Source of the DNA: a virus
Taxonomy: Duplodnaviria > Heunggongvirae > Uroviricota > Caudoviricetes
Virus record (IMG/VR): IMGVR_UViG_2526164651_000009
Length of the DNA: 10,461 bases
Direction: 5' to 3' (one strand)
Notes under the pieces: generated by a model
Seen by the model: only the letters and a program-made list of their open reading frames with translations
Databases searched by the model: none
What the model was told of the DNA's origin: nothing
Program-made: the position numbers and the translations under genes
Part shown: in pieces, positions 6,436 to 10,461 of the stretch
Layout: every line of letters begins with the position of its first letter
Position numbering within the stretch: the first letter of the stretch is position 1

Positions 6436-6614
6436 TCAGTATCACGGCGCACCTCCACGAACTCATTAACGAATCTCTCCAAAGGCTGAACACATGGCGA
6501 CTGATAGCCCTCGCGGTAAAAGGTCACTCGGTTATGCTCGACGCGCTGTACGGTCACTACAGCCCCGTGACTGTCCTTGTAACGGCTTCCCGGCATCGGA
6601 TTATGGTTACGCAT
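6432..6614 (-). CDS. Small protein, DUF4222-like (tentative), 60 aa
   Basis: ATG at 6614-6612 with GGAGG about 7 nt upstream. The start overlaps the upstream stop in ATGCGTAA. The sequence pattern (GAVVTVQRV...VTFYREGYQSPCVQPLERF) resembles small DUF4222 proteins of P4-like prophages, from recall only. Confidence 0.55.
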   Translation of the reverse strand: MRNHNPMPGSRYKDSHGAVVTVQRVEHNRVTFYREGYQSPCVQPLERFVNEFVEVRRDTE

Positions 6615-7440
6615 GGTTTACCTCCAGACGCTTAGCGAGCCAGCGTTGCGACAGGCGGGTGAGTTCTCCTTTGCGCTGCTCATATTCCATGCCCATATCA
6701 ATTAACGTGATATTGGTGCTTTCGAGATAGGCGAGGTGTTCAAGCTGTGCTGCGTTCATGCTGTCCCGTGGTTCGCCAGTAATGCCATTTGCCTGCGCCC
6801 ACTGCTTCGCCGTCATGCCACCCAGCACGATACGGGCGATCATGTTGCTCTCGTTGCTGTAGTGGCGCTGCTGCGTCGTTTTACCCAGCTCGGCACGGGC
6901 CATATTCAGCGCATCGCACATTGGCTTAAAATTGTTTGCGGCACTGATACGGGCTTTTAGCTGGCGACGATAGCGGGCGGCGATTTCAGGCACGCTACGC
7001 TGTAATTCTTCCTCGCACTGGATGAAATAACGGCGGATAGCGCGGCCCTGTTCGGTGCGTTCGACCATCGCCAGTTCTTTCGCCATTCCGACACTTAACA
7101 GATAGTCTTTGCCGGGTCTGCCAGACTGTTTAATCTTGCTGTAAGCCACGCCATTCGGGCTTTTCCCCAGATTTGGGGAAATTGTTTTATGGACTGAGTA
7201 ATCGTGCCCAATGGTGAAGTCATATTCAGAGATGCGATCAGTGATCCATGTAGAGAAGTCTTTTCCCACGCCCAACGCTTTGTGTAACGCTTTGGCGCTA
7301 ACAATATTGGTTTCACGCCCACCGATATGACCAGGAATAACCGGGACAATTGTGGCAAATTCATTACCGTTAATTGTGCCCTGATAGGCGTTCAGATGAG
7401 GGGCGGCCTCAGAAATTAATCTGCTTTTTTCGATGTTCAT
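6607..7440 (-). CDS. Phage antirepressor-like regulatory protein (AntA-type N-terminal domain, tentative), 277 aa
   Basis: ATG at 7440-7438 with GGAG about 8 nt upstream. N-terminal region SAKALHKALGVGKDFSTWITDRI resembles the AntA/ORF6N-type antirepressor signature (F-S/N-D/T-W-I..RI). The C-terminal half is unassigned. Confidence 0.5.
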   Translation of the reverse strand: MNIEKSRLISEAAPHLNAYQGTINGNEFATIVPVIPGHIGGRETNIVSAKALHKALGVGKDFSTWITDRISEYDFTIGHDYSVHKTISPNLGKSPNGVAYSKIKQSGRPGKDYLLSVGMAKELAMVERTEQGRAIRRYFIQCEEELQRSVPEIAARYRRQLKARISAANNFKPMCDALNMARAELGKTTQQRHYSNESNMIARIVLGGMTAKQWAQANGITGEPRDSMNAAQLEHLAYLESTNITLIDMGMEYEQRKGELTRLSQRWLAKRLEVNHA

Positions 7441-7452
7441 TTTCAGTCTCCG

Positions 7453-7884
7453 TTAGGCGGCGGTGAGATTGTCCGGGTATAGATTGAGAATGTCGGCAAT
7501 TTCAGGCTGAGAAAGTCCCTGATAGCCGCCAGCGTCGGCGTTATGGTTCACAAGCCGAATAACTTTTAGAACGTCACCGCGCCCGGTAAAGCGATAGCGT
7601 AAATGTGACCCTATCCCGTCGGGGTTCTTTTCGTCTATACGCTCAAGCTGAATATCAAGCCTGCGCTCTAACTCGCTGGCGTAGTTCCTTCCAGACGAAA
7701 GGCGGCAATAACGCAGAATATCGTTTTCTGTCCATCCCTCTATACCAGTACGCAGCATATAGACGCGGGCGCGGTGTTTCTTTGGGGTACGCCTAGGTAC
7801 TTGTACCGGGCTGGTGGTCGGCGTAATATCAGACGTGCGAATATCTGAGTTAGCCGCCTGTAATGGGCGGTTTTTCTTTTTCAT
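7453..7884 (-). CDS. Hypothetical basic protein, 143 aa
   Basis: ATG at 7884-7882 overlaps the alpA stop by 1 nt (TGATG); GGTGG lies upstream. The track start at 7887 is a TTG. Basic, proline/threonine-rich N-terminus; no recognised domain. Confidence 0.6.
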   Translation of the reverse strand: MKKKNRPLQAANSDIRTSDITPTTSPVQVPRRTPKKHRARVYMLRTGIEGWTENDILRYCRLSSGRNYASELERRLDIQLERIDEKNPDGIGSHLRYRFTGRGDVLKVIRLVNHNADAGGYQGLSQPEIADILNLYPDNLTAA

Positions 7885-8093
7885 CAAGCCACCTTTCCCC
7901 GACGTTCTGCCAGCCAGTTGTTAATCTCTACCGCATCAAAGGCGGTAATCTTCTCGCCCAGCTTTACCGGGCGCGGCAGTCGCTTATCTCGAACCCAACG
8001 ATCAATGGTTGCTACATGGACGCCCAGCGCTTGAGCCAGGCGGAAGCGGCGAATATAGCCGCTTGTGGGAAGTGGTGATTGGTGTTCTGTCAT
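7884..8093 (-). CDS. alpA: AlpA-family phage transcriptional regulator (helix-turn-helix), 69 aa
   Basis: Preferred start is the ATG at 8093-8091 with AAGGAG about 9 nt upstream; the track start at 8117 has no SD. Motifs RLAQALGVHVATIDRWV...PRPVKLG...EINNWL match the AlpA pattern. It is the first gene after the int-cargo block, as is typical for P4-like and PICI elements. Confidence 0.8.
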   Translation of the reverse strand: MTEHQSPLPTSGYIRRFRLAQALGVHVATIDRWVRDKRLPRPVKLGEKITAFDAVEINNWLAERRGKVA

Positions 8094-8194
8094 ATGTCCC
8101 GTAACTCCTTTCTGCATCGTTACGGGAATACTGAATAAAAAACCAGTGTTTATCTATACAGAATCAAAATATTAAAAATCCGAATAGATTCAGA
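8094..8194 (-). promoter_or_regulatory. AT-rich leader and probable promoter region of the alpA operon, with a hairpin around the alpA SD
   Basis: A 9-bp inverted repeat, 8097-8105 (TCCCGTAAC) with 8119-8127 (GTTACGGGA), has a 13-nt loop containing the SD AAGGAG. Further upstream are AT-rich repeats of AATCTGAA/TTCAGATT (8189-8196 and 8221-8228). No confident -35/-10 hexamers could be assigned by eye. Confidence 0.4.
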
Positions 8195-9046
8195 TTATTG
8201 AAAATCTATCAATTTCAGAAAATCTGAAAACCTCATGTTTTTTATGTGGGGGTTATCTGCGTAGTATTTTTTTAATTCCACTCGACTAAGCACATCTCTC
8301 ACAGACTCTGCAAATGGTTTCACAGTGTCACGGATGTGAGCGCCACCCTTAACCGTTCCGTCAGGTAGTGGCTCAGGGAACAGTAGACGCGCATAAAGCT
8401 CATTGGACACCATAATGCCGTTAATCCTCGCCCATCTTGATATATCAAGATATGGGATTATCCGGTAATGATGGATCTTGGCAATTGTTGACGCCCCGAA
8501 CCTCTTTTTTTCTTTGACGGCACTTTCAGGTATACCGGTCTGAACCCTCCACCTTTTTAGCAATGTTTTAAATCCAGCTATCATTTCGTCATCGTCCATC
8601 AAATCAAGCCCGATATCGACAAATATCCCCGTTTTACCTTCTGACCTTGGATCATCGGTATCATATAGCATCGACTGGTTGTATATATCGCAATTTTCTA
8701 TGTCTGCTCTTGCTTCAATTCTGCCATTATCCGTTATCGTCATACGCCCATCACTCAGGCAGCTGTTAACAAAAGCGCAAATCATCGAAAAAGGTAGAGG
8801 CATAATTCCTCTGTCATCAAAGGATAGACTACCCTCCGGCAAATCCTCATCCCAGAGGGTAACATCCGTTATAAGGGGGAATGGAATAATTGAGAAAACC
8901 TCATCTTTTCGTAACTCAAGACTATCAGAGTGATAACTCATCATGAACATCTCGCTTACCACATGGTTGACACTTAGATCCAACACGTAGTCGTACCTGT
9001 CCAGTGAAAACCATTCCATCACATCGCCGTATTTAGCCCGTTTCAT
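8195..9046 (-). CDS. Hypothetical protein, 283 aa; AT-richer cargo gene between integrase and alpA, function unknown (candidate accessory or defence gene)
   Basis: ATG at 9046-9044 with AAGGTGG about 7 nt upstream; TAA at 8197-8195. The gene looks AT-richer than its neighbours (not computed). No Walker, HExxH or nuclease motif was recognised by eye. Confidence 0.75.
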   Translation of the reverse strand: MKRAKYGDVMEWFSLDRYDYVLDLSVNHVVSEMFMMSYHSDSLELRKDEVFSIIPFPLITDVTLWDEDLPEGSLSFDDRGIMPLPFSMICAFVNSCLSDGRMTITDNGRIEARADIENCDIYNQSMLYDTDDPRSEGKTGIFVDIGLDLMDDDEMIAGFKTLLKRWRVQTGIPESAVKEKKRFGASTIAKIHHYRIIPYLDISRWARINGIMVSNELYARLLFPEPLPDGTVKGGAHIRDTVKPFAESVRDVLSRVELKKYYADNPHIKNMRFSDFLKLIDFQ

Positions 9047-9141
9047 AACGCCACCTTTTACGCTGCGCCTTATTTTGTGATTGAGCCAGGCGGTAAGGCT
9101 TCCCGCTTTTCGCCCCGTCGGGCTAGACTCAATCTATTCAG

Positions 9142-10401
9142 TTAGTTCGCCCTTCTGAGAGGCGTCACGTTGTAATCTTCGCCCTTCTCCAGAGCCACCA
9201 GCAAGCCCGCCCACTGTGTTAACGCAGCCCGTCGCTCGTCAAAGTATTGGTGACGGTTATAAATCCCCTCTACGCCCTTAATGCGATGATTGAGGCATCG
9301 TTCCGCCACTACCGGATCAACGCCCAGCGCTGCTAAATGGGTGCGGGCCGTGCGTCGGAAGTCGTGAATCGTGAAATTAGGCACATCCGGTATTTCGGCG
9401 CGAACCTTAGCCAGTGCTACGGGCAGGGTGCTTTCCTGAATATGGGGGATCATGCGGTTTTGCATCTTTCTGGCTGGCAGTACCCATGCGCTGTTGCATG
9501 AGAACGTTTTAAGCTCTCTCAGCCATTCGACGGCTGGGGAAGGTAGAGGTATATCAATAGGGTCTCCGTTTTTGCTGCGTTCTTCCGGCAAATGCCATAC
9601 CGCACCATCTAAATCAAACTCTTCCCATCGTGCGGCGCATAATTCCATTTTGCGGACGCATAACGCTAACAGTAATTTGAACGTGATTTCGTTCTGGCGA
9701 CTGAATCCCTTAGCCGTGCGCATGGCTTTGAATAGCTGGATTAACTCATCGCGGGTTAACCAGCGGTCACGGGCAACTTCTTTCCCTCCGGCGTCTGCCA
9801 CCTCAAAGGCTGAACAGGGGTTAATCTCTAGCGCGTGCCGTTTGATTCCGTAGTCGAATATGCGGCGCGTCCATCTCAGCACGTCCGTTGCTATGGTCGA
9901 CGCTCCACGGTCAACAATACCTTTCAGCATGTCATCGATATGGCGCGGTTTCACGTCCTCTACCTTCATGCTGCCAATGCAGGGGTTTATATCTTTGTCG
10001 ATACGGCGGCGGAGTATATCGGGGTGCTTCCAGCGCGGGAGGATCTGACGCTCAAAGTATTCAGCGGCAAGCTCTGAAACGCGCATAGCGTTCTTCTCTG
10101 CTTCCATCTTCGCCAGTGCTTCGGTTTTGCGCTTCTGCTTCTCTCCTGCAACGTCATAGCCCAGCGCAACGCGAGCCGATAGCTCTTTGGCTGTCTCTCT
10201 GGCCTTTGATAGTGATAGCTCGCTATACGAACCAATTAGCATGGCGCGGGACTTCCCTGCGAGTTTATAGCGGAATCTCCATGTGGGGGTTTTGTCGGCT
10301 TCACGGTAACGTAGGTATAAACCGTTACCGTCTGCCCGCCCCTCGAATCGCTCTCCGCTCTTAATCCATGCGCGGATCTGCATGTCTGTTAGTTTTGGCA
10401 T
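9142..10401 (-). CDS. int: P4-type tyrosine integrase (site-specific recombinase), about 419 aa
   Basis: Preferred start is the ATG at 10401-10399 (MPKLTDMQIRA..., matching the usual P4-type integrase N-terminus); the ORF remains open to the window edge at 10461. The C-terminal catalytic region carries HDFRRT and the active-site tyrosine context GIYNRHQY. Confidence 0.9.
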   Translation of the reverse strand: MPKLTDMQIRAWIKSGERFEGRADGNGLYLRYREADKTPTWRFRYKLAGKSRAMLIGSYSELSLSKARETAKELSARVALGYDVAGEKQKRKTEALAKMEAEKNAMRVSELAAEYFERQILPRWKHPDILRRRIDKDINPCIGSMKVEDVKPRHIDDMLKGIVDRGASTIATDVLRWTRRIFDYGIKRHALEINPCSAFEVADAGGKEVARDRWLTRDELIQLFKAMRTAKGFSRQNEITFKLLLALCVRKMELCAARWEEFDLDGAVWHLPEERSKNGDPIDIPLPSPAVEWLRELKTFSCNSAWVLPARKMQNRMIPHIQESTLPVALAKVRAEIPDVPNFTIHDFRRTARTHLAALGVDPVVAERCLNHRIKGVEGIYNRHQYFDERRAALTQWAGLLVALEKGEDYNVTPLRRAN

Positions 10402-10461
10402 TTTGCGAATATCCAAACTTTGAATAGGGGGTGTACCCAAAGCAATGTACCCAAACCTCAT

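Follow-up and report, generated by a model that had tools for sequence, protein, structure and literature searches.

What does a lone AT-rich gene do between the integrase and alpA of an integrative island: is it exchangeable cargo, perhaps for defense against phages, or does it belong to the recombination module that surrounds it? The question is raised by a stretch of 10,461 nt of Caudoviricetes DNA (IMG/VR record IMGVR_UViG_2526164651_000009), referred to in its entirety as the window, in which the gene at 8195-9046 occupies the integrase-alpA interval (hereafter, the slot). A first-pass annotation made from the letters alone had proposed this gene as a candidate single-gene defense or accessory function in a variable cargo site. 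Here, we follow its family across mobile elements, its replacement within Escherichia coli, and the systems that it resembles.

The slot gene and its island

The features of the window on which the argument draws are the following, in the order of transcription.

9142..10461, minus strand: P4-type tyrosine integrase, directly upstream of the slot gene (Pfam Arm-DNA-bind_3, Phage_int_M, and Phage_integrase)
9079..9134, minus strand: GC-rich stem-loop in the integrase-to-slot spacer, without a T-run (fold of -34.1 kcal/mol, z -2.2)
9051..9057, minus strand: Shine-Dalgarno sequence AAGGTGG, 4 nt before the ATG of the slot gene (read from the sequence)
8195..9046, minus strand: coding sequence of the slot gene, a DUF6387 family protein of 283 aa (open reading frame list, Pfam, homologues, AlphaFold, and GC)
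8094..8194, minus strand: AT-rich slot-to-alpA spacer with a weak hairpin and T-run after the stop codon, without counterpart in the E. coli island L002
8097..8127, minus strand: predicted alpA leader hairpin (fold), CCCGTAACG...GTTACGGG, the 3' arm of which covers the alpA ribosome-binding site
7884..8093, minus strand: alpA, AlpA-family regulator/excisionase (Pfam Phage_AlpA), with the start at 8093 as annotated in the E. coli island L001 or, alternatively, at 8117

The description of a 283-aa reading frame with a good Shine-Dalgarno sequence, lying between integrase and alpA, is borne out: the frame listed for 8195-9046 opens with an ATG at 9046 on the minus strand, and AAGGTGG precedes it. 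The apparent drop in GC is likewise real. The gene has a GC content of 0.426 compared with 0.537 for the remainder of the window, and its GC3 is 0.444, whereas the other genes range over 0.51-0.65 in GC3 and 0.50-0.60 each in GC. In the windowed computation that had been suggested, all 310 other 852-nt windows lie at or above 0.469 (mean 0.543, sd 0.03), leaving the slot gene as the lowest.

Transcription on the minus strand runs from the integrase through the slot gene, alpA, a 144-aa gene, an AntA/AntB protein, DUF4222, an Ash/Icd-like gene, and small ORFs to a primase (919 aa, Zn-ribbon/Toprim/DUF927, minus strand) and SSB. Co-oriented integrase, alpA, and DUF927/Toprim primase genes in an island of ~12 kb at a fixed site correspond to the layout of Gram-negative PICIs (about 10-15 kb), an assignment made by gene layout. 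The same island, of about 12 kb, is located between dinD and yicC in E. coli ET979. The integrase of relatives adjoins yicC, and database records of the identical integrase and slot protein come from Shigella flexneri and E. coli and in every case place them at the yicC site.

Several observations concern the rest of the island. The 144-aa gene (7453-7887, minus strand) overlaps the stop codon of alpA with its start (TTGATGA) and is conserved after alpA in every E. coli relative, with some RefSeq copies labeled "PM1773 family protein"; searches of Pfam, PHROG, and PADLOC returned no match for it. Residues 165-266 of the AntA/AntB-domain protein (6607-7440, minus strand) match the PADLOC candidate model PDC-S22 (E 1.7e-11). 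Positions 899-2981, which comprise the C-terminal two-thirds of the DUF927 primase and the downstream spacer, lack a counterpart in L001 and L002, E. coli islands otherwise 94-97% identical to the window. The primase of relatives has about 813 aa compared with 919 aa, and the stretch is a second swapped module, presumably for replication specificity.

The DUF6387 family

The slot protein had been described as lacking a recognizable motif, which profile searching overturned. Pfam PF19924 (DUF6387) matches at 103.9 bits against a gathering cutoff of 28.9 (E 1.4e-29), placing the protein within the family, and phrog_23422 matches as well; neither family has an assigned function. The PF19924 model aligns to residues 137-251 only, and the N-terminal motif and middle domain diverge from the Pfam seed. 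An identical protein is found in RefSeq as "DUF6387 family protein" from a Shigella/E. coli island beside yicC, and the two papers found to mention the family do so only in an annotation line. A profile search of 1.84 billion representatives retrieved 608 relatives (E<=1e-3), most of them 250-330 aa long, and a word-indexed search with a deep alignment added one protein. Full-length homologues span 99% to ~20% identity, and all 140 of the relatives that were aligned match the PF19924 model. Given the full-length homologues, the 608 cluster representatives, and the conservation of N- and C-terminal residues, the slot gene is, by comparative criteria, a genuine coding gene.

Conservation is confined to the two ends of the protein. 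Near-invariant positions among the 140 relatives are W12, F13, Y18, and R36 in the N-terminal part and L163, R167, D201, and W205 in a C-terminal core with the motif K-I-x-x-Y-R-I-I-P-x-L-D-L-x-x-W. The middle (about residues 45-140) shows little conservation and is strongly acidic (median charge across these relatives, -8), and the pI is 5.1 for the window protein and 5.3 for the family median. The conserved set contains no catalytic-type cluster of His, Cys, Lys, or Glu and no catalytic-type invariant residue, and no effector, nucleotide-binding, or membrane domain was found in the DUF6387 protein. AlphaFold, supplied with the 140-sequence alignment, returned a confident model (pLDDT 92, pTM 0.81) composed of helices at the N-terminus, a small middle domain of mixed alpha/beta structure, and a C-terminal domain that is entirely helical; an earlier model from a 12-sequence alignment (pLDDT 57) was discarded. 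Foldseek with the predicted model found no match in the PDB or BFVD, and an NCBIfam scan of the window protein gave nothing.

Three candidate resemblances were rejected. The best solved structure by sequence profile was a mitoribosomal protein at E 0.42, judged to be chance. A weak Slx4-CCD Pfam match in 5 of the 140 relatives was judged to be local helical similarity. An AlpA/Xis-type N-terminal helix-turn-helix (HTH_17) was sought by hhalign against an alignment of 33 AlpA proteins, which gave E 0.97 over residues 1-48. The motif common to slot proteins and the AlpA-type helix-turn-helix is not significant (hhalign E 0.6-1), the likeness of WFSLDR... to YFTLDR... or LLRL... is visual only, and neither the window protein nor the 140 relatives have a Pfam helix-turn-helix match. 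Separately, two metagenome contigs encode, immediately after an integrase fragment, a 645-aa protein (P0105) in which DUF6387 is duplicated in tandem (L021:558-2495 and L022:556-2493); it offers no informative fusion partner.

Linkage to alpA and the integrase across elements

DUF6387 loci were collected regardless of context by exact-protein look-ups (of close as well as very distant representatives), scans of IMG/VR using two alignments, tblastn against plasmids and phages, and one GTDB match; a scan of genome contigs gave only one locus. The loci were annotated with HMMs built from the integrase and alpA of the window. The resulting linkage sample comprises 22 nonredundant DUF6387 genes, a gene being informative when at least 350 nt downstream (20 genes) or at least 1.5 kb upstream (17 genes) could be read. 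The next gene downstream is alpA, on the same strand and 58-194 nt away, at all 20 informative genes, and a co-directional P4-type integrase lies directly upstream at 13 of 17. The linkage persists even where identity to the window protein falls to only about 20-25%. The four genes that have no co-directional integrase upstream belong to loci L005, L006, L023, and L032, with at least the first two being EARL/ROD21-type islands in which DUF6387 is the terminal gene. Spacing from the integrase is 95 nt in the window, -4 nt in L045, 13 nt in L043, and 20 nt in L020, and reaches about 390 nt as measured between HMM envelopes. The reading frame of the slot gene is intact at all loci.

The elements that host DUF6387 have nothing in common beyond the recombination module. 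They include primase-bearing satellites (the window and L020, the latter with RepB_primase and Terminase_2), a cI/Cro/DnaB prophage-like element (L010), and EARL/ROD21-type mobilizable islands with H-NS and RepL (L005 and L006). Integration sites comprise yicC and the tRNA genes for Arg, Gly, Leu, and Phe.

Constancy of place is not matched by constancy of partners. The DUF6387 proteins of L010, L013, and L014 are 59-62% identical to that of the window, and normalized scores against the window are 0.63-0.67 for the slot gene but 0.24 for alpA and 0.16 for the integrase. Co-evolution of the slot gene with alpA or the integrase was rejected, with a mirror-tree comparison giving weak correlations (rho 0.28-0.40) and clear discordant cases. 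As judged from these sequence comparisons, the DUF6387 gene keeps its position and changes its partners, with no specific co-evolution with integrase or alpA.

Exchange of the slot gene in E. coli

A search of 5426 complete E. coli genomes found 701 that match part of 7800-10461, with just 3 of the 701 covering the DUF6387 gene. Seven other yicC-site islands were sampled, each carrying one co-directional gene of 216-321 aa between integrase and alpA. Occupants of the slot in E. coli yicC islands form at least four mutually unrelated groups, all AT-rich and all orphan; the GC content of the alternative genes in the seven islands is 0.355-0.43 compared with about 0.54. The alternative genes are located as follows.

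L002:12398-13279 and L039:689-1570, minus strand: A3 family slot gene, 293 aa
L036:675-1625, L037:681-1526, L041:683-1648, and L042:711-1634, minus strand: mosaic-group slot genes, 281-321 aa, with L038 grouped with L036
L040:1055-1705, minus strand: gene for a 216-aa slot protein

Members of the mosaic group share about 40 N-terminal residues, with the motif LPP.YF.L.RAA..L.C...DL, and about 70 C-terminal residues around a variable middle. The alternative slot proteins of the seven islands have no Pfam or PADLOC match, and in the eight E. coli alleles examined the slot always holds one gene, never a multigene or recognized defense system. Hidden homology between DUF6387 and the 293-aa protein replacing it in E. 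coli DY612 was considered and rejected (BLASTP E 48, hhalign probability 0.2%); at the profile level, too, DUF6387 and A3 are unrelated, and the same integrase-X-alpA order is found for A3 in Thalassotalea and Pseudoalteromonas. K-12 YfjH (318 aa), encoded in the intA-alpA slot of CP4-57 (L033, 3645-4601), was rejected as a DUF6387 member; it is on the opposite strand and unrelated to both DUF6387 and A3.

The limits of the exchange can be read from a comparison with L002, in which homology to the window is lost at 8060, some 30 nt into alpA, and picked up again at 9043, at the start codon of the slot gene. The swapped block therefore consists of the slot coding sequence, the spacer, and the beginning of alpA. 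Across one island lineage, the integrase and alpA stay about 90% identical even as the slot passes from one unrelated protein to another. Between the window and ET979, the slot gene is identical (dS 0) and the integrase has a dS of 0.25, which indicates recent lateral exchange of the slot gene.

The idea of a variable cargo slot is thereby divided. The interval itself is polymorphic, with other orphan genes in the seven islands, and its cassette has been swapped and has recently moved; DUF6387, however, is not generic cargo, with alpA next to it at all 20 informative nonredundant loci. The alignment of related elements that the first-pass annotation had recommended thus yields both results, a slot that varies in E. 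coli yicC islands and a DUF6387 position that is fixed.

Counterparts in other elements and the preferred reading

By analogy of position, the closest precedent of the DUF6387 slot gene is the iolg/icg class of PICMI satellites in Vibrionaceae (Barcia-Cruz et al. 2024, PMC10803314). These integrase-overlapping and integrase-contiguous genes lie between int and alpA, with iolg overlapping int by 1-13 nt and icg contiguous with it, and they comprise 13 unrelated families without assigned function in 35 subfamilies (PMC10803314). They are expressed constitutively with int. In PICMI115, the sole element tested, deletion of iolg abolished helper-induced excision, and complementation was achieved with int and iolg together, not with iolg alone (PMC10803314). 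Three PICMI subfamilies have no gene between int and alpA (PMC10803314). The window gene is similarly placed on the same strand between the two, as in 13 of 17 informative relatives, and the occupants are mutually unrelated in both cases, with 13 PICMI families set against at least four groups in the E. coli yicC islands. Some DUF6387 genes overlap or abut the integrase (-4, 13, and 20 nt). The differences are that the window gene, at 95 nt from the integrase, is "contiguous" at best and is likened by position, not sequence, and that its host is a 12-kb enterobacterial island with AntA, Ash/Icd, DUF927 primase, and SSB.

A second parallel comes from EARL genomic islands, where the terminal gene next to the recombination directionality factor (RDF) is a conserved backbone gene without assigned function, and where ORF28 of ICEKp258.2 is annotated as DUF6387 (PMC10763509). 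As in the window, the DUF6387 gene of EARL/ROD21 islands is directly upstream of, and co-directional with, an AlpA-family RDF. The integrase of these islands, in contrast, is at the opposite end, facing the DUF6387 gene only across attP of the excised circle and divergently, and the DUF6387 proteins there are only about 21-33% identical to the window protein. Its standing as a backbone gene of EARL islands and its synteny elsewhere bring the slot gene near to, without fully making it, a conserved backbone protein at this position, the outcome that the first-pass annotation had set against its cargo proposal.

Our preferred reading, held tentatively and at somewhat less than even odds, is that the slot gene encodes a nonenzymatic binding protein serving as an accessory factor or gatekeeper of the Int/AlpA excision switch in P4-integrase-type elements. 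The argument for a role at this switch is the invariant linkage to Int and AlpA, the only module common to these elements, together with the EARL backbone status, the PICMI precedent, and the lack of an enzyme or defense signature. The protein would be made with Int in the quiescent island, its transcript being that of int or one begun in the short integrase-proximal spacer. Its conserved core, presumably the N-terminal helices (W12, F13, Y18, and R36) packed with the C-terminal domain (L163, R167, D201, and W205), might dock on the recombination machinery or its DNA, and the acidic variable middle domain (about 45-140) could provide allele-specific recognition. Once AlpA appears, the slot protein would join in or license excision of the island, as the putative counterpart of the PICMI iolg/icg genes. 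The combined evidence suggests that the gene is not an exchangeable payload in the ordinary sense; its biochemical role is hypothetical.

The gatekeeper role accords with neighbors that hold across deep divergence (20/20 for alpA downstream and 13/17 for the integrase upstream), with host elements diverse in all but the recombination module, with the EARL islands and the DUF6387 annotation in ICEKp258.2 (PMC10763509), with the loss of excision in PICMI115 lacking iolg (PMC10803314), with the tight integrase spacing in L045, L043, and L020, and with the same integrase-X-alpA order around the unrelated A3. Partner mismatch in both directions argues against it, since a subunit contacting Int or AlpA specifically should co-vary with them: slot genes are swapped under ~90% identical integrase and alpA, and similar DUF6387 proteins are found beside near-unrelated ones. 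The three PICMI subfamilies without an interposed gene imply a function that is dispensable or replaceable (PMC10803314), and the PICMI support comes from one element in which int and iolg were complemented jointly. Conflict or accessory genes typically show the low GC and recent lateral transfer seen here, and the N-terminal likeness to AlpA-type helix-turn-helix motifs, as given above, lacks significance.

Conflict cargo as an alternative

Allelic replacement by unrelated proteins, the absence of co-variation with the integrase and alpA, low GC, and recent transfer keep alive a second explanation, that the slot gene is lysogeny-expressed, single-gene anti-phage or anti-element cargo in an integrase-proximal hotspot, the product of which would bind a component of an invading phage or rival satellite and block it. 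We consider this less probable than the excision role but a live alternative, at about one chance in a few. PICIs are reported to have immune systems at the 5' or the 3' end (PMC11364771), P4-like satellites have defense hotspots (PMC9122126), and nonenzymatic defense proteins such as Tai exist (PMC11364771). The slot resembles these hotspots as an integrase-proximal, polymorphic position whose cassettes are exchanged by recombination in conserved flanks (PMC11364771, PMC9122126). It also holds orphan AT-rich single genes, the alternatives among which end in a terminator, as morons do, and the DUF6387 cassette combines recent transfer with a hypervariable acidic middle domain and no co-variation with integrase and alpA.

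The defense label itself has so far gained no support from the searches. PADLOC-DB 2.0 had no match at E<=1 for the window protein, and the 140 relatives gave only scattered single matches (E>=4e-4) to unrelated models, none of them consistent; the Pfam, PADLOC, and Foldseek checks that had been proposed returned the DUF6387 match only, with no defense model and no fold match. Nor is there an effector, nucleotide-binding, or membrane domain. DUF6387 is always upstream of alpA (20/20), whereas known defense genes occur in many contexts, and it is a backbone gene of EARL islands, which are not known as phage satellites (PMC10763509). Unlike in the PICI and P4-like hotspots, one gene of 216-321 aa is found in the alleles examined, none matching a known defense system (and, in the eight from E. 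coli, never as a multigene arrangement), and the slot families remain beside alpA over deep divergence. The observations on replacement, co-variation, composition, and transfer also suggest a sensor or gatekeeper variant of the excision-switch idea.

Spacers, transcription, and control of alpA

The 95-nt integrase-to-slot spacer contains the stem-loop at 9079-9134, and homology to L002 from 9043 through the integrase spans this element at 92% identity despite the different slot gene in L002. A promoter scan of 9047-9141 found no promoter-like site, and a consensus scan for promoters and terminators plus a repeat search around the slot gene gave nothing above shuffled expectation. With no promoter-like site in the spacer and a stem-loop devoid of a T-run, the slot gene is probably co-transcribed with the integrase. 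The stem-loop could be a processing, pause, or protein site.

On the other side of the gene, the fold of 8135-8235 is unexceptional (z -0.8), and clear terminator hairpins follow the slot gene in the alternative cassettes, whereas the window cassette has only a weak one. The spacer at 8094-8194 must hold the alpA promoter. The predicted alpA leader hairpin recurs in layout in 20 of 23 alpA leaders, with stem sequences that differ and compensate mutually (e.g., CCCGTAAC/GTTACGGG, CCCCCTGT/ACAGGGGG, and TCGTATCG/CGATACGA). Besides the window, it is found in L002, L004, L007, L010, L011, L013, L015, L017, L019, L020, L034-L037, L039-L042, and L045, and it is absent from the EARL-type L005 and L006 and from K-12 CP4-57. 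By folding back on the ribosome-binding site, the hairpin probably blocks AlpA translation on read-through transcripts from the integrase and slot gene.

These spacers bear on a third explanation, which we regard as improbable: that the slot protein is an allele-specific alpA regulator, analogous to Stl of SaPIs, that binds the alpA promoter of its own cassette to hold or license expression of alpA, while its variable domain senses a signal from the helper phage or host. The block swapped relative to L002 includes the slot-to-alpA spacer; sequence upstream of the leader hairpin differs by slot allele despite identical or near-identical AlpA proteins; and, judged by eye, some 35-40 nt following the slot stop codon resemble each other in the window and in L010/L013, although alpA is unrelated there. 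Gram-negative PICIs, moreover, have no known repressor, nor an identified helper signal for switching on alpA (PMC6092414). As an analogy only, the slot gene shares with Stl a place next to the integrase, high diversity between islands, presumed expression in the quiescent state, and a division into conserved and variable parts.

The analogy, however, weakens on inspection. Stl has no sequence or fold similarity to DUF6387, DNA binding by DUF6387 is hypothetical, and the slot gene is co-directional with the regulator that it supposedly controls. Deletion of the slot gene in PICMI115 abolished excision (PMC10803314), the opposite of de-repression, and a plasmid-borne alpA reporter from EcCICFT073 responds to helper phage in island-free strains (PMC6092414). 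No repeated operator-like motif has been demonstrated, the protein is acidic, and it has no significant helix-turn-helix match. We give very little credence to a last possibility, passive filler in which AT-rich DNA acts (e.g., as an H-NS-bound insulator between integrase and alpA) and the protein has no role, for although all slot alleles are AT-rich (as given above) and EARL islands with DUF6387 also encode an H-NS homologue, the protein is conserved over 608 cluster representatives, has invariant residues, and is given a confident fold, and its frame is intact at all loci, all of which points to selection on the protein.

Implications for AlpA-controlled islands

The sequence of the slot gene was already catalogued; as biology, the gene is a new member of the recently described class of genes interposed between int and alpA. 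Among the islands under AlpA control are Gram-negative PICIs, PICMIs, P4-like cryptic prophages, and EARL islands, of which ICEKp258.2 of Klebsiella pneumoniae ST258 is an example. Linked to alpA across element types, DUF6387 is an obvious candidate for a missing component of their excision control, given this linkage, the lack of an enzyme signature, a predicted fold unlike solved ones, and a position equivalent to that of the one tested analogue, which was required for excision. Were it a defense protein instead, it would represent a new single-gene system restricted to a single niche of the genome.

A wider and distinctly speculative reading, to which we assign a low probability, extends the gatekeeper role to the whole slot: DUF6387 and its unrelated replacements would all serve the P4-integrase/AlpA switch as sensor or gatekeeper subunits, each exchangeable for another, and would form the missing, Stl-like specificity layer in Gram-negative satellites and EARL-type islands. 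In this scheme, docking on the excision machinery or on the alpA promoter would fall to the conserved core, and the sensing of a helper-phage or host signal to the hypervariable acidic domain. If so, a cassette swap would re-target the island to a new trigger.
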